Positions 2,672 to 35,404 of a stretch of 64,000 bases of DNA are shown one piece after another. The notes under the pieces are model-generated. The model saw nothing but the letters and a program-made list of their open reading frames with translations. It was not told the origin of the DNA and did not search any database. A program made the translations under genes and the position numbers. Each line of letters starts with the position of its first letter. The first letter of the stretch is position 1. Where the stretch lies: assembly GCA_963804995.1 (NCBI GenBank), contig CAWDSK010000006.1, forward strand, positions 2,080,001 to 2,144,000, read 5' to 3'. This DNA comes from an uncultured Acidobacteriota bacterium (GTDB lineage Bacteria > Acidobacteriota > Terriglobia > UBA7540).

Positions 2672-2700
2672 ATCAGCCATCGGATCATCGCTGGCTGGCG

Positions 2701-4613
2701 GTTGCGGTAGGGATACCGGTTACCCGGTACCCCCCGCACGGATCCGTACGTGCGCTGGTTAGCGCATACGGCTCTTATCTCGGATGTGTGGCGGCGAACC
2801 GTTGGGATGGCCAAGGATGCACAACGTGCGGAGCAGGCAACCAGCAGGCCGCAAGCTTCCCCAGTCGGTCCCAGTTGAGGCGGTGGCGTTGACTGCGTTG
2901 ACGCAGTTGTGTTCGCCACAGTCGGGTCAACCGTTCCCGAAAGATTCGCAGGCGGTTGAGGTTTCCCGGTACCGCGTGATAGTTGAAGTAGCCTTGCACG
3001 ACCGACCGGAGCCATTTACCCGTATCCGCGATGGGATCGTGCCGACGCTGCCGGAGTTGTTGCTTGAGTTCCTGCAACTTCCCCCGCAGGCGCTTGCTGA
3101 TCGTCTTCCGCTTCACGGTAAATTGCCCCCTCCGGTTCTTCCCGCTGATATGCGTGAAGCCCAGAAAGTCGAACGTCTCCGGCTTACCTTCTCCTCTCCG
3201 TTTCCGGTAAAGTTCGGCAAACGGCCCGAACTCGATCCGGCGCGTTTTGTCAGGATGCAGTTCCAATCCAAACTTCCCCACCCGCTCCCGGAAATCCTCC
3301 AGAAAGCGGTCGGCTTCCGTCTGCGATTGGAATCCAAGGACCGTATCGTCGGCATACCGCACCACGACCACGTCTCCCCGGGCGTGCTTCTTGCGCCACG
3401 CCTGCACCCACAGGTCAAAGACGTAGTGCAGATAGATATTCGCCAGCAGGGGCGAGACCACCGCCCCTTGTGGCGTACCCATCTCCGTCTCCGACCATTC
3501 GCCTTCCTCCCTCACCCCGGCTTTCAGCCATTTCTGGATGAGCCGGAGAATCCGGGGGTCGGCGACGCGATGCTGCACGAACTTGAGCATCCATTCGTGG
3601 GATATCGAATCGAAAAATCCACGAATGTCCGCGTCAAGAACGTAGTTCACGTGCTTCACCGTGAGCGCGTACGAGAGCGCGTCCAGCGCTTGATGCTGGC
3701 TGCATCCCGGTCGAAAGCCATACGAGAAGCCCAGAAAGTCTTCCTCGTAAATCGCCTTGAGGATGGTGACCACGGCCTGTTGGACGATCTTGTCCTCCAG
3801 TGCCGCAACCCCCAACGGACGTTGCCGCCCGTCGCCTTTCGGGATATACGCCCTTCGCGAGGGCTTCGCTCGGAATGCTCCGCGGTGGACCCGGCTGTGC
3901 AGATCGACGAGTCGACCTTCCAGCCCGCTTTCATACTCCTGCCACGTCATGCCGTCTACTCCCGGTGCAGCTTTTCGCTTCAAGGCGTAAAAGCTTTCCC
4001 GCAGCAGATCGACCGTTAAGTGGTGGAGCAAGGCCGTGAACTTCATCTCCCTGTGTTCCTTCGCGGCTTTCCGCACACCCGCGAGTCCCTGGGACACGCG
4101 TGCCCCGCTCTGTGTCGGGTGCGTGTTAGGCCAACGGGTGTTCTCCTTGATCAGCGGCCTTCCCTCCTCATTCTCCGCCAACGGCTTCCCGTCTTTGTTC
4201 AAATGATTCATCGGTACTGTTCCGCTGTCCGACTCCTCGAAAGCGTGCAGGCGGGCTGTACGGCCATCGCCTTTTCCCGCCGTCCGGCCACGATCTACGG
4301 CGGCCGGCGCCTCCGAGGTCTCCCGGTTCTCGTGCAGAAAGTGTCTAGGCGTGTCTGGGGTCTACGACTACGCAGGACTGTGCCGGAACTCGCGTTGGCG
4401 TCCCGGCCTCATGTTGCCTTCCGTTTAGTCTGAAAACGTCGGCGTCCTGATTGGACATTTTCGAAGCTCAATACCCAGCCCACCTATTCCCCTGTTTACG
4501 CTTCACCGTGCGCCTCACGACGCCCAGCGCAAAACTCGGGGCCGAGTGGATCGCTGCTCCTTCCTCGTGAGAAATTTTCATTCTCTGCTTTCTGCCGGTT
4601 TATCCCGGCGCAC
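2701..4613 (-). mobile_element. group II intron 1 (IIB-type), apparently intact, 1913 nt
   Basis: 5' end GTGCG at 4613; domain V GAGCCGTATGCGCTAACCAGCGCACGTACGGATC (AGC triad) and domain VI ending CCCTACCGCAAC at 2701; encodes an RT. Confidence 0.95.
2775..4211 (-). CDS. ltrA: group II intron reverse transcriptase/maturase, no endonuclease domain
   Basis: APGVDG, RPLG, SYGFRPG, GTPQG..SPLLANIYL, RYADD and FDFLGFT motifs; X/maturase domain; no C-terminal HNH. Confidence 0.97.
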   Translation of the reverse strand: MNHLNKDGKPLAENEEGRPLIKENTRWPNTHPTQSGARVSQGLAGVRKAAKEHREMKFTALLHHLTVDLLRESFYALKRKAAPGVDGMTWQEYESGLEGRLVDLHSRVHRGAFRAKPSRRAYIPKGDGRQRPLGVAALEDKIVQQAVVTILKAIYEEDFLGFSYGFRPGCSQHQALDALSYALTVKHVNYVLDADIRGFFDSISHEWMLKFVQHRVADPRILRLIQKWLKAGVREEGEWSETEMGTPQGAVVSPLLANIYLHYVFDLWVQAWRKKHARGDVVVVRYADDTVLGFQSQTEADRFLEDFRERVGKFGLELHPDKTRRIEFGPFAELYRKRRGEGKPETFDFLGFTHISGKNRRGQFTVKRKTISKRLRGKLQELKQQLRQRRHDPIADTGKWLRSVVQGYFNYHAVPGNLNRLRIFRERLTRLWRTQLRQRSQRHRLNWDRLGKLAACWLPAPHVVHPWPSQRFAATHPR

Positions 4614-4838
4614 CAGACCCTAGTTCTTGGGGGTCTGCGATGCCCTGAAGGGACAGGTAAGAGCTGATAACTCATCCCCGTGGTGATGAATTGCTGGAGA
4701 CCAGGACTGTAAGTGGGTTTCGGAATTCTACTGGAGAACTTATCTCAAGATTGACCTTTGGGAATAGTTTCCCTTTGGGACATCGCAGACCCCAAGGTAC
4801 AGGGGTCTGCGCCATCCAGCGGCTTCTTCATTGGCTTC

Positions 4839-5441
4839 TTAGATGACCTGATTTGCAGAAGACCGGCGCTTCCACCACCGGGTAATCAGGGCAAGAGCGA
4901 TGACCAGGACCACCGCGGTCAATGACGCCCGGCCCAAATTGTGACGCAAGTAATCCTGCGCCTGGAGGCCATAGCGCGCGCCCAGCCAGGCATCCGCGCC
5001 AAACCTCAGACCGCGGCCTACCAGGAGCGCCAGCCCAAAACGCAGAGCGTTGACGCGCAGCACGCCGGCGGTGAGAATGAACACCTTCAGGGGCGCCGGT
5101 GGAGGCAGCAGCGCCGCCACCAGAACCGCCACGAAATCGTTCCGCTTGAGCCAGCGCTGAGCGAAGGTGACGGACAGCGGGGTGGTCTTGCGGAAAAACA
5201 ATTTCCCGCCGCCGCGTGCGATCGAATAAAGGACATACGCCCCGCCCATCGAGCCCAGGGTGCTGGCGAGGGCGTAAACGGGCCACCAAGCCGGGCGCTT
5301 GCTGGCCAACACGATCAAGGCCAAATCATTCACGCCAGGAAAGGGAACGAGCGAGGAATCAAGAAACGACATCACGAACAATCCCCATCCCCCGTAGAGG
5401 ACCAGGATCTGACCGAGTTTGGCGGAGAGTGACTTCAGCAT
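4839..5441 (-). CDS. DedA/VTT (YqaA-like) membrane protein
   Basis: GLFVMSFLDSS, STLGSMGG, PPPAPLKVF and GRGLRF motifs. Confidence 0.85.
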   Translation of the reverse strand: MLKSLSAKLGQILVLYGGWGLFVMSFLDSSLVPFPGVNDLALIVLASKRPAWWPVYALASTLGSMGGAYVLYSIARGGGKLFFRKTTPLSVTFAQRWLKRNDFVAVLVAALLPPPAPLKVFILTAGVLRVNALRFGLALLVGRGLRFGADAWLGARYGLQAQDYLRHNLGRASLTAVVLVIALALITRWWKRRSSANQVI

Positions 5442-5706
5442 GCTTTCGAGCTTACACCTTCGAATAAGGGCCGCTCATTCTATGCGCTCCCGCGGCGCAG
5501 CACAACGTGTGATCGCATGGGGGGAGGAGGGACTTGCGCCTTCCCCCACACCCAGGGCCAATCTTTGGGGTTTCCCTAATCAGAAAAACTGATAAGATTA
5601 GTAGGATATCTCTGCACTGGTCTAATGCTTTGGGGCTTCGCTTAAACCCAGCGGGCAATGGTACGCTTCAGGGTACGTCTTTGGGGGAAAACTCAGGAGG
5701 GCAACA

Positions 5707-6771
5707 ATGAAATCGTCCAACGCCGCAACCAATACGGCCAACGTCGCCGAATTATTGTGCGGGACAGGCCAACCGGCGGCAGGGACCCTGGAGGAGCGGG
5801 CGCGGCACGAGGACCCCTCCCTTCTCAAGACCATGTTGGAGCAGATGCTCCTCATCCGCCGCTTCGAGGAAAAATCCGCCGAACTTTATACGCTAGGAAA
5901 AATCGGAGGCTTCTGCCACCTCTACATCGGCCAGGAAGCGGTGGCGGTGGGTGCGCTTTCCACCACCCAACCGGATGATTACATCTTCACTTCCTACCGC
6001 GAGCACGGGCATGCGCTGGTGCGGGGCATGGACCCGGGCGAAATAATGGCGGAACTTTGCGGCAAACAGAGCGGCGTCTCCAAGGGTAAGGGCGGCTCGA
6101 TGCACCTGTTTGACAAGGGGCGCGGTTTTCTGGGTGGACATGGAATTGTCGGCGGGCAAATTCCGCTGGCCGCGGGCACGGCCTTCGCCTCCAAATATCT
6201 GAAGCAATCGCGCGTCACGCTTTGCTTCTTCGGAGAAGCGGCCGTCAACATCGGTTCCTTCCACGAATCCTTGAATCTCGCTGCGCTGTGGAAACTTCCC
6301 GTGGTCTTCATTTGCGAAAACAATCGCTTCGGCATGGGGACTCCCATTGAGCGAGCCTCCTCGCTTTACGAACTTTCGCAAAAGGCTTGCGCCTACAACA
6401 TGGCTCGCACCTGGGTGGACGGCATGGACGTCCTCGCCGTGCGCGAAACCCTGAAGGAAGCTGTCGACCGCGCGCGCCAGGCGAGTGCTCCCACGCTCAT
6501 TGAAGCGCGCACTTACCGCTTCATGGGCCATTCCATGTCCGATCCTTCGCATGGCCACTACCGCACCAAGACGGAAGTGGAAGAGCACCGCCGGCAGGAT
6601 CCCATCAAACAGTTCACCGCGGCTTTAGAGGGGATTGGAGTGGTCAACCCGGGATTTCTTGACGAACTCGACCAGAAGGTTCGCGACATTGTGGAAGAGG
6701 CGGTTGCTTTCGCGGAGCGGAGCCCTGAGCCAGACGCCAAGGAACTCGGCACAGACGTTTACGCGGAATAG
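5707..6771 (+). CDS. pdhA: pyruvate dehydrogenase E1 alpha subunit
   Basis: IGGFCHLYIGQEA, YREHG, GKGGSMH, TPP-binding GEAA...ENN, TYRFMGHSMSD. Confidence 0.96.
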   Translation: MKSSNAATNTANVAELLCGTGQPAAGTLEERARHEDPSLLKTMLEQMLLIRRFEEKSAELYTLGKIGGFCHLYIGQEAVAVGALSTTQPDDYIFTSYREHGHALVRGMDPGEIMAELCGKQSGVSKGKGGSMHLFDKGRGFLGGHGIVGGQIPLAAGTAFASKYLKQSRVTLCFFGEAAVNIGSFHESLNLAALWKLPVVFICENNRFGMGTPIERASSLYELSQKACAYNMARTWVDGMDVLAVRETLKEAVDRARQASAPTLIEARTYRFMGHSMSDPSHGHYRTKTEVEEHRRQDPIKQFTAALEGIGVVNPGFLDELDQKVRDIVEEAVAFAERSPEPDAKELGTDVYAE

Positions 6772-6810
6772 ATTAAGTCACCCCATATTAAGATCGATGC
6801 GGAGCTATTC

Positions 6811-7815
6811 ATGGCAATGATGACTTATCGTGAAGCCCTTAACCAGGCGATGCGCGAGGAAATGCATCGCGACGAGACCGTGGTGCTGATGGGCGAGGAA
6901 GTGGGCTTCTACCAGGGCGCTTACAAGGTCAGCAAAGGACTGCTCGATGAGTTCGGGCCCATGCGGGTGCTCGACACTCCCATCACGGAGCTGGGCTTTA
7001 CGGGGCTCGGCGTGGGCGCGGCGATGGTAGGCGTGCGGCCCATCGTCGAGATGATGACCTTCAACTTCTCGATGTTGGCGCTCGACCAGATCGTGAATAG
7101 CGCGGCGAAAATGCTCTACATGTCAGGCGGGCAGTTTCCCATTCCCATGGTGATTCGCGGTCCCGGAGGCGCCGCGCACCAGCTTGCCGCGCAGCACTCG
7201 CAGTCGCTGGAATCGTGGTTCTGCCACGTTCCCGGCTTGAAGGTGGTGGCACCCTCTACCCCGGCTGACGCGAAGGGCTTACTCAAGACTTCGGTTCGTG
7301 ACAATAACCCAGTGATCTTCATCGAGTCGGAAGTGCTGTACGGGACGCGTGGCGACGTTCCCGAGGGGGATTACCTCATTCCGCTGGGCGTGGCTGACAT
7401 CAAACGCCCCGGCCGCGACGTGACCATCATCGCGCACTCGAAGATGGTGCTGCTGGCGCTCGATGCTGCCGCGGATCTGGCAAAGGAAGGTATCGAGGCT
7501 GAGGTGGTGGACCCGCGCACGCTGCGCCCGCTCGATACCGAGACTATTTTGAACTCCGTAAAGAAGACGAATCGCGTGGTGATTGTCGAGGAAGGCTGGC
7601 CTTACTGCGGAGTGGGCGCGCAGTTTGTGGATACGATCCAGCACGCCGCGTTCGATTACCTCGATGCGCCCATCCTGCGGGTGACCGGTGTCGACGTCCC
7701 CATGCCCTACGCGAAGAACCTGGAACACCTTGCGCAGCCTGATAAACAGCGCGTCAAAGACGCCGTTTACCGCGTGCTCTACCGGCAAGGAGTCGGGGCG
7801 CAAGGGCATGCGTAG
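6811..7815 (+). CDS. pdhB: pyruvate dehydrogenase E1 beta subunit
   Basis: GEEVGFYQGAYKVS, DTPITE, MTFNF, AQHSQ, DYLDAP, PMPYA. Confidence 0.96.
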   Translation: MAMMTYREALNQAMREEMHRDETVVLMGEEVGFYQGAYKVSKGLLDEFGPMRVLDTPITELGFTGLGVGAAMVGVRPIVEMMTFNFSMLALDQIVNSAAKMLYMSGGQFPIPMVIRGPGGAAHQLAAQHSQSLESWFCHVPGLKVVAPSTPADAKGLLKTSVRDNNPVIFIESEVLYGTRGDVPEGDYLIPLGVADIKRPGRDVTIIAHSKMVLLALDAAADLAKEGIEAEVVDPRTLRPLDTETILNSVKKTNRVVIVEEGWPYCGVGAQFVDTIQHAAFDYLDAPILRVTGVDVPMPYAKNLEHLAQPDKQRVKDAVYRVLYRQGVGAQGHA

Positions 7816-7824
7816 GAGAGGATC

Positions 7825-8022
7825 GAAGTTAGAAGTTAGGAGCTAGGAGTCAGAAGCTAGAACTTAGAAACTGGAATCCAGAACTCAGGATTCAGAAACG
7901 AGCGGCGCAGATCATTCGGACCGGCGCAAATTCTCGCCGTCTAAAATGACGAGGAAACCGGGGGGCAAAGGCAGGCGGGATGCTTGCATTCTAGCTCCTA
8001 ACTCCTGGCTCCTAACTTCTAG
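7825..8022. repeat. inverted 7-bp tandem arrays between pdhB and pdhC
   Basis: About 10 TAGAAGT/TAGGAGC-type heptamers at 7825-7897 and about 5 reverse-complement units at 7989-8022. Confidence 0.85.
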
Positions 8023-8058
8023 ATCCCTGCTCCTTTACTTACAAAATGAGGGTTCCCA

Positions 8059-9402
8059 ATGGCCGTTAAGGTAATGATGCCTAAGGGCAGCGATACGATG
8101 ACGGAGGGCAAAGTCCTGAAGTGGCTGAAGAGCGAAGGGGACACGATCTCCACTGGCGACACCGTTGTCGAAATCGAGACCGATAAGGTGGACATGGAAG
8201 TCGAAGCCATGGGCGGCGGCGTGCTCCGCAAGATTTTGGTCGAGAAAGGCAAAGTCGTGCCCGTGGGCGAATTGCTCGCGGTCATCGCGAAGCCCGACGA
8301 GGATATTGCGGCTCTGATCAAGGGCGACGGCAAGGGGTCCTCCGCTCCTCCACCCGCTGCCGCCGGAGCCGGTGCGCCTGCCTCCTCCGGAAAAGCAACG
8401 GCGGCTCCTCCGGCCGTTAGTGCTCCGCCCGAGCCTGCAGTGGGAGGATCTCTGCCAGTTCCTGAGACCGGCGGCCGCGTGATTGCCTCACCCCTGGCGC
8501 GAAAGATGGCGAAGGACATGGGTCTTGAGATTGCCAGCATCGCGGGCTCTGGTCCGGGAGGAAGAATCATTCGCCAGGACGTGGAGCGCAGCGCCGCGTT
8601 GCCTTCGCATGCGCGCACCGCAACCGGCGGCCAGGAAGCTCCCTCGCCTTTGCGCGCGCCAGTTGGAGCGCCTGTGCCCATCGCGCCGCGCCGGGCTCCC
8701 ATTGCTCCCACGGGTCCAGAGTTTTATGATGAGCCGCTCAGCTCCATGCGCAAGGTGATTGCCACGCGCCTGGTGCAGAGCAAGGCTCCGGTGCCGCATT
8801 TCTATCTCACCATCGAAGTGGATATGAAGCGCGCCAAGGAGTTGCGCGAGTCCGCCAACCTTCTCAACGCCGACCTGAAGCTCAGTTACAACGACGTAAT
8901 CTTAAAAGCCTGCGCCGCGGCTTTGCGCCAGCACCCGGAAGTGAACGCTTCATTCCAAGGTGAGTCGATTCGCTATCACAACCGCGTGCACATGGGTATG
9001 GCGGTATCGACGGACGGCGGCGGGCTGATTACGCCCGTCATCCGCAACTGCGATGCGAAGACCTTGCAGGAGATTTCCCGCGAGGCGAAAGAGCTGGCCG
9101 GCCGTGCCCGTACGCGCAAACTGCTTCCTGAGGAATACGTGGGTTCCACCTTCTCCGTCTCGAATCTTGGCATGCTGGGCATCGAGGAGTTTTCCGCGGT
9201 CATTAACCCGCCGGAAGGGGCGATCCTGGCCGTGGGAATGGTGGCAGAGAAACCGGTGGTGGTGGAAGGCCGCGTGGAAGTCGGCTTGCGCTGCCGCCTG
9301 ACGCTCGCCTGCGACCACCGTGTGGTGGACGGCGCCACCAGCGCCAAGTTCCTGCAAACCCTGAAACAGATTCTGGAGAATCCTGTATATCTGGCGTTCT
9401 GA
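8059..9402 (+). CDS. pdhC: dihydrolipoamide acetyltransferase (PDH E2)
   Basis: Lipoyl domain ETDKV, E3-binding ASPLARK...GSGPGGRI, catalytic DHRVVDG. Confidence 0.96.
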   Translation: MAVKVMMPKGSDTMTEGKVLKWLKSEGDTISTGDTVVEIETDKVDMEVEAMGGGVLRKILVEKGKVVPVGELLAVIAKPDEDIAALIKGDGKGSSAPPPAAAGAGAPASSGKATAAPPAVSAPPEPAVGGSLPVPETGGRVIASPLARKMAKDMGLEIASIAGSGPGGRIIRQDVERSAALPSHARTATGGQEAPSPLRAPVGAPVPIAPRRAPIAPTGPEFYDEPLSSMRKVIATRLVQSKAPVPHFYLTIEVDMKRAKELRESANLLNADLKLSYNDVILKACAAALRQHPEVNASFQGESIRYHNRVHMGMAVSTDGGGLITPVIRNCDAKTLQEISREAKELAGRARTRKLLPEEYVGSTFSVSNLGMLGIEEFSAVINPPEGAILAVGMVAEKPVVVEGRVEVGLRCRLTLACDHRVVDGATSAKFLQTLKQILENPVYLAF

Positions 9403-9479
9403 CGCACGGTAGAGCGCAAAACCTCGCTTCGCTGGAAAGGCCGCAGGGCCGGACCGCGGGCCCTGCGCTACTTCTGACT

Positions 9480-10250
9480 ATGCGATTTGAAAAAGAATTG
9501 GAAGTTGCGCAACGCATCGCCGAACAGGCGGGGCGGCTGGCGCTGGAAAGCCAGGCACGTGGATTCCAGTGGGAAGCGAAGCCTGATGATTCTCCCGTGA
9601 CTGCTGTCGACCGCGCCAACGAGCGGCTGATCTGCGGGTTGCTCGAAGAAGCCTTTCCCGACGACGGCATCCTGGGCGAAGAGGGCGCGGCACGTGAATC
9701 GCACAACGGCCGCCGCTGGATTATCGACCCCATCGATGGCACGCGCGACTTTGTGAGGGGCATTCCCACCTGGAGCGTCATGCTGGCGCTCGAAGCGGAG
9801 GGCGAGGTGGTGGTGGGCGTGTGCCACCTGGCGGCGCTCGGGGAACTCCATTCCGCTGCCGCTGGTGTGGGAGCCTTTCGCAACGGAACTCGCATCCACG
9901 CAGCGCCCGCCAAAACGGTTGAGCAAGCCGTGATCTGTGTGACCGCTCTGCGAAACCTCAACGGGCGCGACTTCTCCGACAGGCTGATTCCCTGGATGTC
10001 CCGCTTTTGGGCAGTGCGAAGCATGGGCGGCTGCATGGACGCGATGTGCGTCGCCTCCGGGCGTGCCGATGCTTTTATCGAAGTCGAAGCCAAGGCTTGG
10101 GACCTGGCTCCGCTCAAGATCATTGCCGAGGAAGCCGGTGCGCGCTTCCTCAACTTCAATGGCAAGTCGAGCATCTATGGCGGCAACTGCGTGATCACCA
10201 TTCCTTCCCTCGAAGCCGAGATTCGCCGGTTCCTGGGCATTCCAGATTGA
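9480..10250 (+). CDS. inositol monophosphatase family protein (HisN-like possible)
   Basis: DDSPVT..D, GEE, WIIDPIDGT, WDLA...EEAG motifs. Confidence 0.9.
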   Translation: MRFEKELEVAQRIAEQAGRLALESQARGFQWEAKPDDSPVTAVDRANERLICGLLEEAFPDDGILGEEGAARESHNGRRWIIDPIDGTRDFVRGIPTWSVMLALEAEGEVVVGVCHLAALGELHSAAAGVGAFRNGTRIHAAPAKTVEQAVICVTALRNLNGRDFSDRLIPWMSRFWAVRSMGGCMDAMCVASGRADAFIEVEAKAWDLAPLKIIAEEAGARFLNFNGKSSIYGGNCVITIPSLEAEIRRFLGIPD

Positions 10251-10318
10251 ACCTGAGCGAGGGAAGACTCTCCCCTGCAACCTACCTCCGTGTGCCATCC
10301 GGCTAACCAGTCCATGCA

Positions 10319-10387
10319 GTAGAGGCGGCGGAACCTGTCCTGATCTTAACGGGACGCCGCCATATGGCGAGGTAAACTCGCCGCTAC
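10319..10387. repeat. GTAG-type REP doublet (family A, ...GGCGAGGTAAACTCGCCGCTAC)
   Basis: GTAG...CTAC ends; copies at 25085-25123 (inverted), 33500-33568 and a partial one at 48451-48477. Confidence 0.8.
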
Positions 10388-10480
10388 GACATCAGATTGA
10401 CCCTGCCATCCTCCCAGATGCTTGCATTGTGCAAAATGTGTATAATGGCGGCAGCCCCTCTCTACCTACAAGGAGGCTTT

Positions 10481-11701: not shown

Positions 11702-11726
11702 ATTGAAATCAGTGGCAGGAAAAACC

Positions 11727-11753
11727 AGGGGCGCGGCATCTCGCGCCCCTTTT
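11727..11753 (+). terminator. probable intrinsic terminator
   Basis: AGGGGCGCG-loop-CGCGCCCCT followed by TTT just after the stop codon. Confidence 0.6.
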
Positions 11754-11792
11754 CCATTATTGAAACGTCGTCTTAACGAGGAGGAATGAGGA

Positions 11793-11998
11793 CTGGCGCA
11801 GACCCCGGCTCTTTGGGGTCTGCGATGCCACGAAGAGGCAGTGATGAATTGCGCGTCACACGAGGGGTATAGAATTGTCGTTAGGTGGACGATAAATGCG
11901 CTTGTAGAAGCGTATGGCTCGTTTCACTCTAAACACTGGCCGGGATGGTGTCCATGCGGGACATCGCAGACCCCCAAGAACCGGGGTCTGCGCCAGCC
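11793..11998. repeat. intact (intron-free) family D REPIN
   Basis: CTGGCGCAGACCCC..GGGGTCTGCGATG / spacer / CATCGCAGACCCC..GGGGTCTGCGCCAGCC. Confidence 0.88.
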
Positions 11999-12033
11999 GC
12001 CGTTCTCGGACGCCGCGGCAGCAAGTCCAGCGC

Positions 12034-20778: not shown

Positions 20779-20791
20779 AAAGGCGCGATGC

Positions 20792-22821: not shown

Positions 22822-22897
22822 GGAAAGGAAGTCCGCTTGCTAACTTTGTGGGACATCGCAACGGAAGACGCGTACATTGCGTGAGGGGAAGTTTCTC

Positions 22898-23386: not shown

Positions 23387-23509
23387 CACCCCGCAAGCCC
23401 CGGATTCCTTGCGATTGTCTGGTAGCGGTCAGAGCAGTCTTGACGTGCAGGACCATCAAATTGCGGGGATGCACCGCCTCAAACGACACCTGTCCGCCGA
23501 AAACCGCGT

Positions 23510-24952: not shown

Positions 24953-25188
24953 ATTCCCTTCTTTCACCCAGGTTGCCCGCGGCAGACTCGGCCGTGGTGG
25001 CACTACTCGGGATGTTACATTACATTTAACATCATACTCCTAAACGTCCCATCTTGGCACTTCCTGAATTAAACGTTTGATGTTGTAGCGGCGAGTTTAC
25101 CTCGCCATAGGGCGGCGTAAAGCTAGACTTGTCCAGATTAGCGAAGCCTTCGAGTGGTCAACGTGGCTCTGCCTCCTGTCATGAAAAA

Positions 25189-25352
25189 GCTCCCCTCCTC
25201 AGATGAGGAGGGGTGGCGCGCCGAGCGCCGGGGTGGTGCTGATGCTTGCCACACGCCGCCCGGCGGATCGAATAACCACCCCGTCGCTATCAGGTGCTCG
25301 CGTAACCACCCCGTCGCCTTCGGCGCCACCCCTCCTAAATCAGGAGGGGAGT
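25189..25352. repeat. REPIN family B (CTCCCCTCCTCAGATGAGGAGGGG...CCACCCC)
   Basis: Homologues at 30099-30195, 44081-44215 and 51190-51335. Confidence 0.85.
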
Positions 25353-25458
25353 TACCCCGCCCATTTTCATCATCAGTGGCGCTCCGAAAGAGAATGGGCG
25401 TCTGTGCGGAAGAGTTATGCCCTTCCGGGTTCGCCCCCAGCGCCTTCGCATGCTGAAT

Positions 25459-26415: not shown

Positions 26416-26561
26416 AAAGTTTTCCTCCTCCACATCAAGGCTGCGAATGAATTCTGCTCAGTGATCCGAGCGCGGTGATAGAATCTGTCTCTCTTTCCGG
26501 GAGTGTCAAGCTGAATTTGGTTGGCGCTCCCCGTGGTAAAAACCCAACCTAGAGGTATACG

Positions 26562-27737
26562 ATGGCAAAAACGGTTAAAGTCGGAATTGTAGGCGCGGGC
26601 TTCGCGGCGCGCTTTCATTGGCAAGGTTACCAGCGCGTCCACAACGTGCCGGTGGAAGTTGTGGGAGTGACCGACCTCTCCGGAAGGTCACGCCAGAAAT
26701 TCCATCACGAGCATAACGTAAAGTCTTTTGCCACCTTTGAGGAGTTGTGCGATGCGGTCGACGTGGTGGATCTTTGCACGCCGCCCTCAACGCACGAAGA
26801 GATGGCGGTTCGAGGCTTCGAACGCGGCAAGCACGTGATTATCGAGAAGCCGTTCACGGGCTATTACGGCCCCGGGACTGCAGATTTCCGCGGCAACACT
26901 TTCAGCAAGGAAGTCATGCTGCGCGAAGCGATGGCAAGCTGCGATCGCATCCTCGCGGCCGCGCGCGCTGCAAAAAGGCGGATCGGCTACGCGGAGAACT
27001 GGGTCTATGCGCCGGCCATTGCCAAGGAGCGCGAGATTCTGATCAAGAGTGGCGGGCAACTGCTTTGGATGATCGGAGATGAATCCCACAGCGGCTCCCA
27101 TTCTCCCTACTACGGCATGTGGAAATTCTCCGGAGGTGGATCGATGGTGGGGAAAGGCTGCCACCCGCTGTCCGCGTTGCTCCACCTGAAGCGGGTGGAA
27201 GGCCAAGCGCGTGATCACAAGCCGATCCGCCCGGCCACCGTCTCCGCGCGCACGCACGAGCTGACGCGCATGAAGAATTTCCGCGATGCGGGTTTCCTGC
27301 GCACCACGTATGATGACATCGAAGATTACTGCCAGATACACGTCACGTTTGAGGACGGCACGGTGGCCGACATTTTTTCTTCGGAGCTTGTCCTGGGGGG
27401 TGTGCACAACTGGCTTGAGGTCTTCGCGAACAATCATCGGACCCGGTGCAATCTTAATCCCGTGGACGCGCTCGAAACTTTCAACCCGCGCGAGGACATC
27501 CTGAAGGACGTTTATCTGACGGAGAAGCTGGGCACCAAGCAGGGCTGGAGCCGTCCCGCGCCGGATGAAGATTGGCAACATGGCTACCCGCAGGAGTTCC
27601 AGGATTTTGTGGAGAGTTTTGCGGCCAACCGCGACCCGCTCGCCAGCGGGGAACTGGCGCGCGACACAATTGCCGTGCTTTACACAGGTTATCTCTCCGC
27701 GGAGCGTCGCGGGACGGAGGTGGAGATTCCTGGTTAG
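26562..27737 (+). CDS. Gfo/Idh/MocA family oxidoreductase
   Basis: GIVGAGF, TPPSTH, IEKP, GGGSMVGKGCH. Confidence 0.92.
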   Translation: MAKTVKVGIVGAGFAARFHWQGYQRVHNVPVEVVGVTDLSGRSRQKFHHEHNVKSFATFEELCDAVDVVDLCTPPSTHEEMAVRGFERGKHVIIEKPFTGYYGPGTADFRGNTFSKEVMLREAMASCDRILAAARAAKRRIGYAENWVYAPAIAKEREILIKSGGQLLWMIGDESHSGSHSPYYGMWKFSGGGSMVGKGCHPLSALLHLKRVEGQARDHKPIRPATVSARTHELTRMKNFRDAGFLRTTYDDIEDYCQIHVTFEDGTVADIFSSELVLGGVHNWLEVFANNHRTRCNLNPVDALETFNPREDILKDVYLTEKLGTKQGWSRPAPDEDWQHGYPQEFQDFVESFAANRDPLASGELARDTIAVLYTGYLSAERRGTEVEIPG

Positions 27738-28019
27738 CCGGGAGTCTTGGCCCCCAGCCAGCTTGACAGGCCCCCCCTGCGGAGGGGGGGGCGGCATGTC
27801 CGACAATTTTTGTCACTTACTATTCCACTCTGTGTCTACCTGTGCTAGGGTATGGCGGGCAGAAAAACGGAACTTCTCTATTTTCATCCAGTCAGGGGTA
27901 ACGCCGAGGACGTAAGTTGGTATCTGACGTGCATTTGAGGGTTTCAGCCCGGGTTCGCTGCAATTGGCATGTAAGCGGATTCGTGTGGTGTGCTTGTCCT
28001 TGGGGGAGGAGAACAGGCA

Positions 28020-28508
28020 ATGCATCGTAACCAAAAGGGGTTCTCGCTAGTCGAGTTGCTGATTGTCGTGACGATTATTTTGATCATCGCTGCGATAGCT
28101 ATCCCAAACTTTATACGCAGCCGGATCGCCGCGAACCAAGCCTCGGCCATCGAGAGCCTGCGGACCATTACCACCGCCGAGGTAACTTATTCCTCGACTT
28201 ATGGCCAGGGGTTTACCCTCACCCTCACGGTACTGGCTCCTCCTCCCAACGGTCAGAGCGCGACCTCAACCGCCGCGGGTTTGCTGGATGATGTGCTCGC
28301 GGCTGGATACAAGAGTGGTTACAGCTTCTTTTATACGCCCACCGACTTCAATGTGAGCACCAACCAGTATTACGGGTACACCGTTCAGGCCAATCCTTCG
28401 ACATACGGCCAGACAGGCGGTATGTATTACTATTGCGACCAGACCGGCGTGATTCGTGGAAACCCGACGACTCAGGCCGCCTCAACCGACACGGCAGTGG
28501 CGAACTAG
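28020..28508 (+). CDS. type IV pilin-like protein
   Basis: Prepilin cleavage motif KG/FSLVELLIVV..I.IIAAIAIP; C-terminal DQTGVIR. Confidence 0.92.
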   Translation: MHRNQKGFSLVELLIVVTIILIIAAIAIPNFIRSRIAANQASAIESLRTITTAEVTYSSTYGQGFTLTLTVLAPPPNGQSATSTAAGLLDDVLAAGYKSGYSFFYTPTDFNVSTNQYYGYTVQANPSTYGQTGGMYYYCDQTGVIRGNPTTQAASTDTAVAN

Positions 28509-28588
28509 GTCGCTGCAACCTCATCCCAGGGCCAATTCTTTCCTCCTTATTCAAACCTCAATCCTCGATGGGTACAAATTGAACTGAT

Positions 28589-28747
28589 AGCCCTCTCCGA
28601 GGGGTCGCAGATTCGCCGTGGCGGAAGAGGGTGGACCGCTGTCCCGATGCATTCTATCGGGAGGCGGGACGGGCCTACGCCCACCGAAGGGGCATCTGGG
28701 AGCAGTAAACCACATTTCAGCTTCGACCCGCAGGCGGGTGAGGGGTT
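28589..28747. repeat. REPIN family C (CCCTCTCC..GAGGG / GGCGGGACGGGTGAGGGG)
   Basis: Homologues at 13527-13630, 46413-46695, 48488-48640, 50863-51060 and 60610-60768. Confidence 0.85.
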
Positions 28748-28779
28748 ACTTCGTCACCTGACGAACGGACCCGCCCCCT

Positions 28780-29997
28780 TCATGGGCAGGCACGGTTTGC
28801 CGCAGCCCGGTAGCCTTTCCCCAGCGCTGCCTTTTGCGTCATGTACTCGCCCGCTTGCGTGTTCCCATACCATCTCGTGCCGGCGCAATGGTAAGTTCCA
28901 GAGTTCGTGTTCACCCAAACCTTGGCGTCCGGATTGCCGGGGGCGGTGGTTTTCTGCACCTCGGGCGGGGGCTTCTTGGCAGGAGTTTTGGGGGAGAGAA
29001 CCCCGTGCCACGCCAAGAGTGCGGCCAGCAGCACAACCAGTGCGGACACTCCCCCCGCGGCGGCGAGCCACACGCGGCGGCGCGGTTTGGTGGCTGTGGC
29101 CGGCTGACCAGCAACGGTAGATGCAGGCTCGGGTGCACCAGAGCTTGGCGACGGGGTGAGGGACCCTGCCAGGGGTGTGCCGGTTCGAAGCGCGGTCATC
29201 ACCTCGCGCACCTGGACGCAGCGCGCCACAGGATCCTTTTCCAGGCAACGCCGCAGAATGGATTGCAGCGGTTCCCCCACCTGCGCAAGCTGGGGCGGGG
29301 CGGCCACCATGATCTCCATGCTCAGCTCGAACGGTGTGGCGCCGCGAAAGGGCAACTCGCCGGTCACCATCTGGTAGAGCAGCACGCCCAGCGCCCACAC
29401 GTCGCTCTCGACGGTGGTGGGGTCGCCGCGCAGGACTTCCGGGGCGAGATAGGGCAGCGTTCCGGCTGTCGCGCCGGCCTCCGCCAGCGGCAGGCGCGAA
29501 CTGGTGACGTCCTTCATGCCGCGGCGCGGAATGCGGCGGCCCAGCCCGAAATCCAGTAGCTTGATATTGCCTTCAGAAGTAACGAGGATGTTTAAACCCT
29601 TTAGATCTCCGTGAATGACCCCGCGCTCGTGGGCGTAGGCCAGTGCGTCGGCAATTTGCGCACCGTAGCGCCGCACTTGCTCCACTGGCATTCCACCTTC
29701 AGGGATCAAGTCTGAGAGCGGCAGCCCGGCGATATACTCCATGGCGATGTAGGCACGCTCGTCCTCTTCTCCCAGGTCGTAGATGGCGGCGATGTGGGGA
29801 TGATTCAGATTGGAAGCCAGGCGCGCCTCACGGAGCAATCGAGCCCAGGCCAGCTCGTCGTTGCGCAGGTTGTCGGCCAGAACCTTGATCGCTACCGTCC
29901 GCTCCAACCGCAGGTCGCGCCCGCGATAGACCACGCCCGAACCGCCTTCGCCCAGGCGGTCTTCAACCTCGTAATGCGCCAGCGTCTTGCCGATCAT
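28780..29997 (-). CDS. Hanks-type Ser/Thr protein kinase with TM helix and small C-terminal domain
   Basis: GEGGSG, VAIK, HGDLK..N, DFG, APE, SDVWALG; TM helix; C-terminal VWVNTNSGTYHC...WYG. Confidence 0.93.
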   Translation of the reverse strand: MIGKTLAHYEVEDRLGEGGSGVVYRGRDLRLERTVAIKVLADNLRNDELAWARLLREARLASNLNHPHIAAIYDLGEEDERAYIAMEYIAGLPLSDLIPEGGMPVEQVRRYGAQIADALAYAHERGVIHGDLKGLNILVTSEGNIKLLDFGLGRRIPRRGMKDVTSSRLPLAEAGATAGTLPYLAPEVLRGDPTTVESDVWALGVLLYQMVTGELPFRGATPFELSMEIMVAAPPQLAQVGEPLQSILRRCLEKDPVARCVQVREVMTALRTGTPLAGSLTPSPSSGAPEPASTVAGQPATATKPRRRVWLAAAGGVSALVVLLAALLAWHGVLSPKTPAKKPPPEVQKTTAPGNPDAKVWVNTNSGTYHCAGTRWYGNTQAGEYMTQKAALGKGYRAAANRACP

Positions 29998-30021
29998 AGG
30001 GGAGGGCACTCCTCGACAGGC

Positions 30022-30050
30022 ATGGTAGCCTCAGGAGGGGCGTTTGTCAA
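30022..30050 (-). promoter_or_regulatory. sigma70-like promoter for the kinase gene
   Basis: Minus strand TTGACA-17 nt-TACCAT. Confidence 0.6.
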
Positions 30051-30382
30051 AAAGGTAATGGTCACATCGCCATCAGGCGCGACCTCGTATCGAAAACAAC
30101 TCCCCCGCTCGGGTGAGGTGGGGTGGCGCGCCGAGCCCCGATAGCGCGTTCTTTCCAAATTGATCATCGGGGCCGAGCGCCGGGGTGGTGCTGACTGGGT
30201 ATAGGGTTGGTGTTGCCCTGGGGCGTTTCGGACCGAGCCTGTGAGGTGTATACTCGCACCTCCACCGTTCGCCCTGCTGGCCTGACTGGGGACGATACGG
30301 CATCTGATCCTCAACAGCAACGGCGTGCGACAGTATTGCAGCGGGTGTTCAAGCTCAAAACACTGGAAAGGACTATCATCCT

Positions 30383-31978
30383 ATGCACAGACGCGACCTA
30401 CTCAAATCCCTTGCTTCTGCGGCTGCGGGACTGACCATCCTCAAGAGCGGTATGCTGCGCGGCGCGACCGCTCCCAGCAACAAACTAAATATCGCTCTCA
30501 TCGGCGCATGGGGCCGGGGCACGGCCCACTATAAATCGCTGCGGAACGAAAATGTCGTGGCGCTCTGCGACGTCAACGATCTGCGCACCAAGGAGGCGCT
30601 CCGGCTCTTCCCGGGCGCCAAGACCTACTACGACTGGCGGCGGTGCCTGGAGCAGAAGGATATCGAGGCGGTGGTCATTTGCACCGCCGACCATCATCAT
30701 GCCTTCATCGCCAACTGGGCGCTCAACCGCAATATGCACGTATTCTGCGAGAAGCCGCTGGGAATCAGCGTGGAAGAAGTGCGGGTGGTGCGTGCGAATT
30801 ACCTCAAGCGCAAGGCCAAGGTGGCCACTCAGCACGGAACGCAGCGGCACGCCTGTCCGAACTTCCAGCGCGTGCGCGAGTTGATTCTGGATGGAGCTAT
30901 CGGAGAGCTGAAGGTGGTGCATAGCTGGGACAGCCGGCAACTGCCGCGGCCGGGATATCCGGAAGGCCAGGGCATGGCGCCGTCGGTGCTGCATTACGCG
31001 GAGTGGATCGGACCCTCACCGGATCATCCCTACACCCCTCAGTACTTCGGCGGCTCGAGCGGCTTGAATTGCCTGTTCTGGAACATGTACCGGGACTTCG
31101 GAGTGGGGCAGATGGGCGACATGGGCGCGCACACCATGGACCTGGTGTGGAACGTCGTTGACGCCGGCGCGCCGATCGCAATCGAGATCGACCCGGAGGT
31201 TAGCGACAAGTACAATCCCGACATATGCCCGGTGAAGTTGAAGGCGCACTTCACCCATCCGGCGAATGCGTGGAGAGGGCCGGTGGAACTGGTGTGGTAC
31301 CAGGGTGGGCTGAAACCGGAGTCTCCCAAGGGCTACATCGATGTGAGCAAGATCGGCAACGGCGCAATCTTCGAAGGCACCAAGGGTACCCTCTTGTGCG
31401 ACTTCACATCCCGCCTGATCATTCCAAACGATGACGACGGGGACCTGACGTACTACCGGCGGCGTTCGAGCCAGGAACTGCTTCCGCTGGTGAATGGCAC
31501 CGGGATGCCAACACAAAAGCCTGCGAAACGGGCGGCCGGAGCGGCCTCAGGACCACCGCCGCTGCCGCCGGGATTCACGGCGCGCCCGAATGCGCAGCCG
31601 GGGCCGAACGGGTTCCCCACGGTCCAGTTCCTCGAGAACGGCCTCCCCGCGGGGCTGGGAATGCCGAACACCGACGTGGATGCAATCCTGGAAGCGGAGA
31701 AGAACGGTCGCCCGCTCGATCCCGATCCCTTCCAGTTGGAGTGGATTGCAGCCTGCAAAGGTAAGTATGACGGGGCGGTCCACGGAACCAGTAGCAAGAC
31801 GCACTGTGATTTTGACTACGCCGGGGTGATGATTGAGCAAATGCTGCTGGGTTTGGTCGCGCATCGCGCCGGGAAGAAGCTGGAGTACGACCCAGTTACT
31901 GGGACGATAACCAACGCGCCGGAAGCGAATGATTATTTGAAGAGGCAGTACCGCAAAAACTGGTCGTTGGACGGTTAG
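30383..31978 (+). CDS. Tat-exported Gfo/Idh/MocA oxidoreductase
   Basis: HRRDLL Tat motif, ALCDV, TADHHH, CEKP, GDMGAH; Pro-rich insertion near the C-terminus. Confidence 0.9.
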   Translation: MHRRDLLKSLASAAAGLTILKSGMLRGATAPSNKLNIALIGAWGRGTAHYKSLRNENVVALCDVNDLRTKEALRLFPGAKTYYDWRRCLEQKDIEAVVICTADHHHAFIANWALNRNMHVFCEKPLGISVEEVRVVRANYLKRKAKVATQHGTQRHACPNFQRVRELILDGAIGELKVVHSWDSRQLPRPGYPEGQGMAPSVLHYAEWIGPSPDHPYTPQYFGGSSGLNCLFWNMYRDFGVGQMGDMGAHTMDLVWNVVDAGAPIAIEIDPEVSDKYNPDICPVKLKAHFTHPANAWRGPVELVWYQGGLKPESPKGYIDVSKIGNGAIFEGTKGTLLCDFTSRLIIPNDDDGDLTYYRRRSSQELLPLVNGTGMPTQKPAKRAAGAASGPPPLPPGFTARPNAQPGPNGFPTVQFLENGLPAGLGMPNTDVDAILEAEKNGRPLDPDPFQLEWIAACKGKYDGAVHGTSSKTHCDFDYAGVMIEQMLLGLVAHRAGKKLEYDPVTGTITNAPEANDYLKRQYRKNWSLDG

Positions 31979-32077
31979 CCAGGCCGGTCGCCACCGTGTC
32001 GCCGCGGCGACCCTGTGGTGACCCGCTCTTGATAATGCTTATGCCCTATACCCCACAAGCGTCAACCTAAGGCCAAC

Positions 32078-33112
32078 TCACATTGTCAGAACTACGCGGA
32101 ACTGTGCGTCGCCGCTCATCATGCGCGCGTATGCCTCCGCCGCTTTTTCGAGCGGATAGGTTTCAATCATGGGGCGCACGCCGGTGAGTTCGGCAAACCG
32201 CAATGTATCCTCAGCATCCGTCGGTGTTCCCGAGGCCCAGCCTTGAATGCTTCGACTTCCATTAATGAGCTGTATCGGTGTGACCTCAATGGGATCAAAT
32301 GCCGCACCCACCACCATGAACTTGCCGTTCGGTCCCAGGCCGTCGATCAGCGCGGACATCGCTTTCGAGCTTGGGGCTGTCGCTAGAATGACCTGTGCGC
32401 CGCCCAGTTTTTGCAATTCTTCTGCGGCGTTCGTCGCTTTGCTATCGATGTACACGCTGGCTCCGAGTTTCTTTGCGAGTGCTGCGTTTTCGGATCCGCG
32501 CCCGACAGCCGCCACCTTATATCCAAACTTATTGGCGAATTGAATTCCGAGGTGACCCAGACCGCCAATACCCTGCACCGCAACCAGGTCGCCAGGGAGC
32601 GCACCGCTGTGCCGCAGCGCATTGAAGGTGGTAATTCCGGCGCAGAGCAGCGGCGCGGCTTCGGCGTCCCCCAAACTTTCCGGTATCGCCGTCAGTGCCT
32701 CGACGGGAGCCACCATGTATTGCTGGTATCCGCCGTCATAGCTGATGCCCGCGATTTTCAGATTACGGCAATTGCGAAAGTCTCCGCGCCGGCACTCAAG
32801 ACACGTTCCGTCGCGGCCGCCGTGCCAGCCGACGCCGGCGCGCTGGCCCTTCTTCCACTCGGAAACACCGGCGCCCACTTCATCAATGATGCCCGCCACT
32901 TCGTGTCCTGGAACGCGGGGATACTGAATTCCCGGCCAGGCGCCTTCTTTCGTAAGTGCGTCACTATGGCAAACGCCACAGGCCTGTACCTTGATGCGCA
33001 CGTGTCCTGCGCCAGGCGTAGGAATCTCGCGCTCGACGATCTGGAAGTCGGCTCCTCCCTTCGGGACCTGCGCCACCTTCATGGGTGCGATTGCGACTTT
33101 TGTTGTTGCCAT
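32078..33112 (-). CDS. zinc-dependent alcohol dehydrogenase (AdhP-like)
   Basis: CGVCHSD, PGHE, CLEC...C, APLLCAG, GIGGLGH. Confidence 0.95.
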   Translation of the reverse strand: MATTKVAIAPMKVAQVPKGGADFQIVEREIPTPGAGHVRIKVQACGVCHSDALTKEGAWPGIQYPRVPGHEVAGIIDEVGAGVSEWKKGQRAGVGWHGGRDGTCLECRRGDFRNCRNLKIAGISYDGGYQQYMVAPVEALTAIPESLGDAEAAPLLCAGITTFNALRHSGALPGDLVAVQGIGGLGHLGIQFANKFGYKVAAVGRGSENAALAKKLGASVYIDSKATNAAEELQKLGGAQVILATAPSSKAMSALIDGLGPNGKFMVVGAAFDPIEVTPIQLINGSRSIQGWASGTPTDAEDTLRFAELTGVRPMIETYPLEKAAEAYARMMSGDAQFRVVLTM

Positions 33113-33194
33113 AAATCCTCCTTTGAATGATCAGACTTTGTCGAAAAGGACTTGCTCTTGTGTGCGAGGCGAGCGAACCTTGCTCTTCGCACTT

Positions 33195-33335
33195 CTATCC
33201 CGCCACCTCGAATATGACTTCCAACTTGACCGAGCTGCCGAGCGGAAGGCTTGCGACGCCATACACCAAACGGCAGGGGCTCTTGTCTTTTCGAAGACGT
33301 CTTCGAGCAACTCCGAAGCGGCATTGAAAACTTCC
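33195..33335 (-). pseudogene. 3' remnant of a RidA/YjgF-family gene
   Basis: ...ASELLEDVF[frameshift]KDKSPCRLVYGVASLPLGSSVKLEVIFEV* resembles RidA C-termini; 5' part missing. Confidence 0.7.
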
Positions 33336-33750
33336 CTCAGCCCTCCACATCTGATGCATCAAAAGGCGCCAAACGCCCACTTTTTTTGGGTTCCAATTTG
33401 CCCCTGCCGCTTTCCGATTCCCTGCTGATTCCACCTTGGTGGCGCACTCGGAGCATCTTTCAAGGGAGTACCCATGCTTGCGTAGTGGTGCAGTTTGATG
33501 TAGAGGCGGCGGCATTCATCCAGATCCGGTCGGGACGCCGCCATTTGGCAAGGTGAACTCGCCGCTACAACATCAAACTACACCACTACCCGCGCTTGAT
33601 ATTGTTTGCGTCTTCCAGGGCTTGTGCTTCCAAATTCTGGAGCGCGGTAGCGCCTCTCGCATCTCAGAGAGTCTGCGGCTTTCCGGTCTTCCGCATTGAT
33701 AGAAATGTGAACGCGCTTCCAGCTTGAAGCCCCAACGGGGCGACCTACCA

Positions 33751-35015
33751 ATAGGGGTAGGGAGACGCGATTGGATTCGGTCCCCCTCCCTCCGAACCGG
33801 ACAGGCGGATTTCCCGCATCCGGCTCTCCAGTCGGTGGTTTTACCTCCGAGAGGATGGACGGACCGAGTCATGGGCGGCGACCAGAGAGAACAGCCCCTG
33901 CTCGGCAAAGAAGGCATTAGGTCAGCGGTGATGGTCGGTGCCGCGGCCTCGGCCCGGGCGTCCCTGGCGGTAGCGCAAGATGCTACGCAGCCGCATGCGG
34001 ACCCAGGAATCCAAGACCTCGAACGCGAAACGACAACTGTGCTGAAAATACTCGAACCAGCCTCGCAGCGTACGGTTCACGTCGGTGAGGATGGCCGCCC
34101 AGCTCTGCCCGGAGCGCCGTCTGTACCACCCGGTCACGCACCGTCGGAATCCCCAAGGGTCGCTTTTCTTTGCTCCCCAATTTGCGGATCCAGTGACGCC
34201 GTATCGCCTGCGGGCGATAGCTACCGTCCGCGAGCGACCGCGAGAGCTTTTCCAGGTTCGCTTCCAGGTGGCGCTCGAACTCTTCCACCGTCACGTGGTC
34301 TACACCGGCGGCTCCCTCGTTGGCCTTCACGCGAGCGAAGGCTTGCCGCAAAGTCGGCAGAGCGCAGACCTTATCCATCAGGCTGTACCACCTGCTTCCT
34401 TTCACTCCCTGTTCGAGAGCCGTCAACATCCGTTCCGTCCCAACCTCGGCTTCGACCCAGGCCCATCGAGCCTGAATCTCTCCGGCGGGGGTAGCTCGTT
34501 TTCCGAGCACTCCGTCCGGGGGGGCTTGCGGTGGTTTGTCCGTCACGTCTCCACCTTCCTGCGCTCCCTTCGCTCCATGGCCGTTACGCCACTTCTTCGC
34601 TACTATGGGCGCGGTGACTCCGGCGTGCACGCGCTCTTCCCGGCCCTTTCCAGGCGGCGGGGGCGGCTCTTCTACACGCCGGTCTCCCTGATTCACGCCA
34701 CCGGCCTTCCGGCCATTCTGTCTCCAATCACCTGCGGGCGCTCCGTCTCACCAAGGCACGTTACCTGTGGGTGGATCGGACCAAGACGGCTTCCCTCTAT
34801 GGGTTGTGCTCCCTCCGGGAACTCGGGGCTTCGTCCTCAGCTGGCAGACTCGCCGCTCCCCGCCGGCCGAATCGAGTTTCTTATCGTACGGACTGGCCGT
34901 TCACCTCCTGCTGCTCTCCACCCCGCCTCGCGGCGACGCAGTTGCAGTCGGTTTCAAGTTACGTTGACTTGGAGAGGACTTCCACCTCTCCGGTCGATGG
35001 CGCTTTCAGGCGCAC
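33751..35015 (-). mobile_element. group II intron 2 (IIB-type), internally deleted, 1265 nt
   Basis: 5' GTGCG at 35015; domain V GAGCCGGATGCGGGAAATCCGCCTGTCCGGTTC; domain VI ending CCCTACCCCTAT at 33751. Confidence 0.92.
33841..34546 (-). pseudogene. ltrA: truncated intron RT/maturase (central RT blocks including YADD deleted, frameshift, nonsense codon)
   Basis: RT0-2 (WYSLMDKV, GAAGVD, RPLGIPTVRDR) fused out of frame to the X domain (NRTLRGWFEYF); TGA where W is expected at 33922. Confidence 0.9.
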
Positions 35016-35404
35016 CAGCCCAGGCCGAAGGTCCGCCAATCTTAATGGAGGACCGAAGGCCTGGGTCAGGCAAACGCAACCAGTTTCCATCCGCAAGCCC
35101 TGAAGGTGCGGGCCAACCGTTGCCTCCCCACTTTCCCAACGGCATTTTCATCTCGATCTGTGGGGCGGAATAGAGGGTTCCCTAGATCGCCCTTTCAGGG
35201 CTTGGCGCGGGAAACAATCCGTTGACCCAGGCCGTTGGCCGGGCTGTGTCAGTTCGCCCCGTTGGGGCTTCCTTGCAAATTAGACACTACCCACCTCTTA
35301 TCCGCCCCGGACCGCTTGCCCAACCTCGTGTTATGATGTGTTTTCGACCCCCAAGGGGTCAGGGGTTTCATCCCACAAACCTAATCTGAGCAGGAGGCAC
35401 TTCG

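Follow-up and report, generated by a model that had tools for sequence, protein, structure and literature searches.

Two unrelated group II introns in palindromic repeats of an acidobacterial genome, probably reached by different routes

Three target specificities are listed for bacterial group II introns, namely homing sites, terminators and attC sites (PMC4424553); here and below, statements on published systems refer to the passages of the cited papers that our literature search covered. Class C (IIC) introns target intrinsic terminators and attC sites (PMC4424553, PMC7923331, PMC12584367), a IIB intron after an attC site has been reported (PMC7923331), and introns of the g6, U1 and U2 types have been reported directly behind predicted L- or I-shaped terminators (Miura et al. 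2022, PMC8919778). The strand of RmInt1 of Sinorhizobium meliloti corresponds to the lagging-strand template (PMC8914252), and RmInt2 uses both inverted repeats of ISRm17, one target thus always being correctly oriented (PMC4615759). Repetitive extragenic palindromes (REPs) are targeted by the insertion sequences (ISs) ISPpu9, ISPpu10, ISPsy8 and IS1397, and a group II intron of P. putida is REP-associated in only 2/9 cases (PMC1525189 and its table). We analyzed a stretch of 64,000 nucleotides (the window) from an uncultured Acidobacteriota bacterium (contig CAWDSK010000006.1, positions 2,080,001 to 2,144,000), which contains two group II introns on its minus strand, intron A (4613..2701) and intron B (35015..33751). 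Sequence comparison makes it probable that these two unrelated, endonuclease-minus introns have converged on transposase-associated palindromic repeats by different routes. Our search, which left most subscription papers outside its reach, found no description of group II introns homing into REPs; RmInt2 and the introns of Miura et al. 2022 are related precedents.

Intron A and the REPs of its host

Intron A is present in 40 copies in the genome with 99.6-100% identity, 38 of them full length, and the intact open reading frame (ORF) in 37/38 full copies suggests a recent spread. Since the ends of contigs C2, C6, C7 and C9 lie in or beside copies, the true number may not be 40. All 37 copies with a readable 5' exon (35 nt readable) lie in the same kind of hairpin, and in 39/39 copies with a 3' exon this exon starts CGCYA, which fits a REP. 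Read on the opposite strand, the host is a palindrome tagged with GTAG or CTGG, of which the genome contains 231 strict copies (GTAG 185, CTGG 40), 36 filled by intron A and 195 empty. Its GC-rich hairpin bears a tetranucleotide tag at the foot, and its copies number in the hundreds and are mostly intergenic, as expected of a REP, although CTGG is not among the REP tags given in the published descriptions covered. The palindromes flank two genes (C5:58461 and C6:722534) that pass the model for REP-associated tyrosine transposases (RAYTs; NF047646, 111.9 and 117 bits, cut-off 80), and the host of intron A is therefore a true REP.

The hairpin strand entered by intron A is the one that does not bear the tag, and the junction lies within the 3' arm, at 2-3 bp from the foot of the stem. 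The insertion occurs without target duplication, as the 195 empty strict REPs are continuous across the junction. The opposite arms of the same hairpins were used in 0/219 cases; they carry the same six letters but lack both the motif of the 3' exon and the letters of the loop. All 36 scorable insertions fall within 359 motif sites, out of 9485 GTCYG/C sites in the genome (the slash marks the intron site), and the placement of intron A in REPs is not due to chance. In the window, the 5' part of the filled REP, ending GGTCTG, lies at 4614..4638 and its 3' part, with the complement of the CTGG tag, at 2690..2700 (both minus strand). A second REP doublet of the same family (11793..11996) has both halves empty (11823-11793 on the minus strand, 11966-11996 on the plus strand).

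We then considered the pairing that would guide intron A. In the guide scan, domain I could be aligned for 62 of 109 loci (readable 5' end, >60% identity), giving 60 distinct sites. The sequence CAGACU at intron nucleotides 182-187 (4427..4432, minus) covaries with exon positions -1 to -6 and constitutes exon-binding site 1 (EBS1), with Watson-Crick pairs in 57, 57, 54, 51, 57 and 51 of the 60 sites, respectively. In the sister genome G005 the EBS1 is CGGACU, with G instead of A facing -2, and all its sites read carry C at -2. Three stretches complementary to GTCTG later in domain I were rejected as EBS1, since they are invariant across introns with different targets. A candidate short EBS2 was found by inspection at nucleotides 157-160 (4454..4457, minus), which would pair with exon positions -9 to -12 in the REP loop. 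The 5' exons carry a purine at -9 in 34, C at -10 in 36 and a purine at -11 in 34 of 37 copies; the automatic covariation scan did not single out this candidate.

The copies also follow the replication fork. Fork direction was assigned from contig-level third-position skew, polarity resembling that of FtsK-orienting polar sequences (KOPS) and dnaA (C3, C4 and C6 minus; C5, C7 and C8 plus; C2 switching at dnaA). Along the fork lie 33/34 assignable copies, with 6 further copies on C1 and C9 without an assigned direction, and the orientation of intron A flips at dnaA on C2. GGTCTG REPs were filled in 26/50 cases along the fork and in 1/67 against it, and fork-oriented GGTCCG REPs in 3/53. This orientation makes the intron strand the lagging-strand template, as for RmInt1, and supports a single-stranded, lagging-template context, in line with the targets prone to ssDNA hairpins proposed in a preliminary description made from the window sequence; the target itself would be single-stranded. 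Fork direction also accounts for the minus-strand position of both window introns and for the empty state of the inverted partner REP (4785..4815, plus), which belongs to the same 220-bp doublet as the filled REP and lies against the fork. An empty GTCTG partner was found for 10/14 filled REPs that have a partner. Local GC skew, taken over stretches of 80 kb, gave too much noise for strand calls (21/96 versus 15/135). Transcription direction was rejected as the cause of the bias: fork-oriented REPs were filled in 17/34 cases with the upstream gene and 8/22 against it, and opposite sites in 1/39 and 0/33. Within REP clusters, a rule by which the first REP is filled fitted only 4/7 clusters and was not borne out. 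Isolated fork-oriented GTCTG REPs were filled in 19/29 cases and clustered ones in 8/22, with one insertion per cluster in 6/7 clusters. Like intron A, the class D introns RmInt1 and RmInt2 are endonuclease-minus with a lagging-template bias, and the paired inverted targets of RmInt2 resemble the REP doublets; in contrast, they target IS elements instead of hundreds of short REP hairpins and belong to a different class (PMC8914252, PMC4615759).

The structure of intron A is that of a complete group II intron of 1913 nt, with a GTGCG 5' end (GUGYG start), an AAC 3' end (AY end), domains V-VI and a reverse transcriptase (RT)/maturase gene. The latter (4211-2775, minus) encodes 478 aa with a YADD motif and passes TIGR04416 (342.9 bits, cut-off 300); Pfam found RVT_1 alone in this protein, the endonuclease domain being absent. 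Domains V-VI (2701..2776, minus) score 39.2 bits, just below the Rfam cut-off of 40. The RT is 57-58% identical to three proteins labelled class E and joins the class E references with support 100, in trees that were quick trees only, two loci being left out for want of a readable ORF. On this sequence basis intron A is assigned to class E (IIE). The loop of domain V (DV) comprises, on folding, 4 nt with a closing U-A pair, or 6 nt when that pair is open, whereas a loop of 5 nt is given as a class E feature (PMC3753933). The disrupted class E intron S.me.I4 of pRmeGR4b, whose RT is 57% identical and joined at support 100, is likewise endonuclease-minus, with EBS1 and a short EBS2 (PMC5894124, PMC8919778). 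A REP target was not found in the class E descriptions covered, whereas intron A has 40 copies in REPs.

Relatives of intron A at 88-93% identity, plus one at 83%, use the same REP, and those at 80-84% an AT-rich repeat or other sites. This AT-rich repeat, dispersed and non-palindromic, is targeted by L047, L048, L055, L062 and L172, and the present genome has two 5' fragments of such introns within it (G000 C2:652257 and C1:206552). Six class E relatives (L046, L164, L166, L168, L169 and L173) have non-canonical 5' ends, with a few extra bases before AGCG and an EBS1 that matches the exon further upstream. At 60-79% identity, a perfect 7-bp stem is present in only 3/49 distinct sites, and one relative at 76% targets another palindrome. 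Sites without a hairpin are used by most relatives in this 60-79% range. A class E intron of G058 (contig C1, loci L174-L191), 53% identical to A and starting GAGCG, lies at the foot of a palindrome in 18/18 copies, on the tag-bearing strand and following the fork in 17/18; this palindrome has 563 further exact copies. REP users are separated by non-users on the quick tree, and palindrome use occurs at no fewer than three separate places within class E (the clade of A, L117 and G058), which we read as repeated retargeting by guide change. Intron A itself looks like a case of ordinary sequence homing retargeted to REPs.

Intron B and the hairpins upstream of its lineage

Intron B (1265 nt) has intact ribozyme ends (GTGCG and AT, conforming to GUGYG and AY) and domains V-VI (33751..33828, minus), folded with a 5-nt DV loop. 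Its RT gene, of which a remnant lies at approximately 33900..34430 (minus), is internally deleted, having lost 635 nt at 34105, between two direct repeats of 7 nt, and carries a premature stop in the X domain. Judged by this gene, intron B is non-autonomous. It is the only copy in the genome with both ends; most of the RT survives in a fragment on C9. The B lineage is further represented by two introns without an ORF (G000 C3:45244-46001, 758 nt, and C3:98298-99061, 764 nt), which lie at GCTA/C behind GTAG-type hairpins; an intact RT of their lineage was not found in the assembly.

A CGC triad marks a IIC-type DV. Both window introns have an AGC triad on folding, and the earlier deduction that neither is IIC holds. 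The pSymB RT, our sole class C reference, is a long branch that joins neither intron and is 34% identical to that of B. Intron A also lacks the upstream stem and short intron-binding site 1 (IBS1) of class C, as its EBS1 has 6 nt and stems are rare among its relatives. The RTs of A and B are 36.6% identical (the longer B fragment on C9 being used), in line with the large difference in RNA and RT already described; RT relatives belong mostly to Acidobacteriota. With 41% and 32% identity to g2 and g3, the RT of B is placed outside both, and also outside classes D and E; its lineage lacks an RT segment present in the g2/g3 references. It groups at support 99 with its nearest labelled relative (54%), a protein labelled 'Unclassified' in Miura et al. 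2022. Intron B may belong to U1, U2 or a basal class F, whose basal members So.us.I2, Ge.ur.I1 and Pe.th.I2 were not in the tree; the 5-nt DV loop is an RNA feature of classes F and E.

The host of intron B is a 281-bp element with an upstream part at 35016..35271 (terminal inverted repeat, end hairpin 35256-35268) and a downstream end, the 3' exon, at 33726..33750 (end hairpin 33729-33741; all minus strand). The 5' exon ends GGGCTG, and empty alleles at C2:727087 and C6:152738 run straight through the junction, without target duplication. Precise insertion into dispersed palindromic repeats, as first proposed, is therefore seen for both introns. A DNA hairpin (35019..35065, minus, z -4.1) has its foot 3 nt before the intron. 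The initial placement of both introns at or just after a hairpin needs refining, since both are near one, A being inside the 3' arm, short of the foot by 2-3 bp, and B 3 nt past the foot. The target hairpin of B has 12 strict copies, 4 of them around a Y1 transposase gene, and 27 copies with any loop. This Y1 gene (C6:1027102) scores 66.1 with the IS200 TnpA model, above the cut-off of 55, but 30.6 with the RAYT model, below the cut-off of 80, and the host repeat of B is consequently not a canonical RAYT-associated REP. The REP label given to both hosts is thus retained for A and not for B.

To the readable 5' exons of the B lineage (94 loci, 80 metagenomic and 14 genomic; 44 usable after dropping 3 mis-called ends) we added 3 own copies and removed one duplicate, giving 46 distinct sites. 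Where the exon is readable, relatives with 86-90% RT identity all lie (9/9) at the same position of the same repeat as intron B, so that repeat targeting is upheld for both lineages. The EBS1 of B, CAGCU at nucleotides 173-177 (34839..34843, minus), covaries with exon positions -1 to -5: nucleotides 173-176 pair with -1 to -4 in 42, 43, 44 and 43 of 46 sites, and nucleotide 177 with -5 in 29, plus 13 G-U pairs. EBS3 (nucleotide 288; 34728, minus) pairs with +1 in 37/39 sites by Watson-Crick rules. For -7 to -12, the covariation scan of the 46 sites gave no comparable column that would indicate an EBS2. The preliminary description had expected EBS1 to covary with the target, and it does so in both families. 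It had also taken the similar exon ends, GGTCTG and GGGCTG, as the sign of one shared strategy. This view did not survive, as each intron has its own EBS1 and relatives of B end in CTT, CTA or CTG; the similarity is a coincidence, since the guide of each intron mismatches the site of the other at -4.

Stems are the common feature of these sites. A perfect stem of at least 7 bp ending within 8 nt of the site precedes 36/46 B-family sites, compared with 19/223 upstream control stretches. The arm ends cluster 3-5 nt before the site, mostly 3-4 nt, and the last two partners of the 5-nt EBS1 of intron B lie in the stem. In G122, five copies of 98.6-100% identity lie behind four different hairpin sequences that share only GCTA/C. 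The bases following the stem are often the complement of a REP tag (CTA/C, CTC/C). A member of the B clade on the Paraburkholderia plasmid pBN3 is preceded by a stem of only 5 bp, beside a recombinase element and with no evident REP.

With its stem-loop a few bases upstream, short EBS1 and IBS1, EBS3 and no EBS2 signal, the B lineage resembles class C, and in terms of its sites it behaves in a IIC-like manner though it is not IIC. It is unlike class C in its AGC triad, its 5-nt DV loop, the location of EBS1 partners within the stem and its targets, repeat hairpins that are rich in GC and lack a T tail (PMC4424553, PMC7923331, PMC12584367). The g6, U1 and U2 introns are the precedent for hairpin-following outside class C; in the passages covered, their hairpins are not identified as REP-type repeats and their EBS pairings are not mapped (PMC8919778).

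Sequence and structure in target choice

Taken together, the sites, the guide covariation, the strand bias and the hairpin enrichment, all read from sequence, suggest the following picture. Intron A would recognize its target by ordinary RNA-DNA pairing through the 6-nt EBS1, probably supplemented by a short EBS2 facing the REP loop, together with a constant 3' exon; the guide would have come to match the host REP, and it would reverse-splice into the lagging-strand template at the fork, where the nascent lagging strand may prime. The B lineage would combine a 5-nt EBS1 and EBS3 with an upstream DNA stem-loop, its foot 3-4 nt away, and this stem, presumably recognized by the B-type ribonucleoprotein, would supply the rest of the specificity. 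In these GC-rich genomes, the hairpins it meets would be REP-type repeats. Both repeat families may thus serve as abundant, mostly intergenic and probably neutral landing sites. A role of the hairpin as a structure is well supported by the site comparisons for the B lineage only.

Both introns might instead share one mechanism that needs the folded REP hairpin, with EBS2 of intron A seeding the loop, EBS1 invading the stem and TnpA-REP possibly presenting the site. We consider this unlikely. Its appeal lies in the linear motif sites, where intron A filled none of 20 without a hairpin arm, in the candidate IBS2 within the REP loop, in the recurrent palindrome use by class E and in two copies of A in REPs directly adjoining RAYT genes. 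However, most filled REPs are far from any of the 14 Y1 genes of the genome, only the few relatives mentioned above have a stem, and the geometry differs within class E, the tag-proximal arm on the strand opposite the tag being used here and the hairpin foot on the tag-bearing strand in G058. Hairpin energy, tried as a predictor of filling by intron A, was rejected, as stability did not differ between filled and empty REPs (p=0.99). A folded stem would also hide the IBS1 of intron A.

The opposite possibility, that both introns home by sequence alone and the hairpins are passengers, because the matching repeats happen to be palindromic and other insertions were purged, appears improbable to a similar degree. 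It is a good fit for intron A, and the survivors may be biased, as REP sites are mostly intergenic (36/40 copies of A by crude ORF calls). It does not account for B-type introns, whose pairing spans about 6 nt: the genome contains 5848 and 4874 such sites, of which 19% and 7% lie behind a stem and many are intergenic, yet B sites lie at a fixed distance from stems of unrelated sequence. Passive spread, by transposition or duplication of repeats already carrying the intron, would draw on the mobilization of REP doublets attributed to RAYTs in the descriptions covered, and has very little probability. For intron A it is refuted by the flanks, which come from different REP subfamilies with different loops and tags around copies 99.6-100% identical; moreover, the strand bias tracks the intron and not the REP population.

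Several points weigh against convergence by different routes, which we nevertheless prefer. The evidence is wholly comparative, and the relatives are not independent, so that p-values overstate. Fork direction had to be deduced from weak skew and a KOPS-like polarity, in an assembly of 9 contigs. Fork-oriented linear-motif sites were filled in 0/20 cases without a hairpin arm versus 27/58 with an arm, which leans towards a structural role for the hairpin of intron A, a result qualified by the presence of the candidate IBS2 in only 3/20 of the hairpin-less sites. For the B lineage, 10/46 sites fail the strict stem test because of bulged or short stems, including that of the window, whose hairpin is longer and bulged. 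In addition, 19% of (C/T)GCTA/C sites in the genome already follow such a stem, and the two ORF-less copies alone therefore prove little.

It is tempting to speculate, with somewhat less than even confidence, that bacterial group II introns have in REP-type repeats a fourth general kind of target, which was reached repeatedly. Class E would time and again re-program its EBS1 to the REP of the host, and the non-IIC lineage would insert at a distance of three bases from the foot of whichever REP hairpin it meets, reading the tag complement with a swappable 5-nt guide. Both would follow REPs as these evolve and may disrupt the tag and stem needed by TnpA-REP. The genome itself shows a fourth niche, in which two lineages occur next to each other, and so offers a naturally paired test of sequence versus structure in target choice. 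REP homing would explain how a site-specific intron reached 40 copies with little gene disruption, as in REP-targeting ISs, which share the niche of dispersed REPs as many harmless targets but are DNA transposons (PMC1525189). It would also extend hairpin-guided insertion beyond class C, with mapped guides, tie retroelements to REP/RAYT dynamics and suggest retargetable single-strand integrators with short guides.

Other introns and features

Two other intron families of the genome were checked and are not in these repeats. One, near g3, has 3 copies (G000 C1:97423, C1:290417 and C3:1127187), and the other, near g2, has 6 (C1:27123, C4:162312, C5:1086362, C5:1125512, C6:297539 and C6:295583), one pair being head to tail. 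A domain V of IIC appearance is present in short introns or remnants at G000 C6:668586 and C1:172182. In the window, an aldo/keto reductase gene (35405-36428, plus strand) is split into two overlapping frames of the same Pfam family, owing to a frameshift or a sequencing error, and degenerate 7-nt tandem repeats lie between two genes at 1530-1640.

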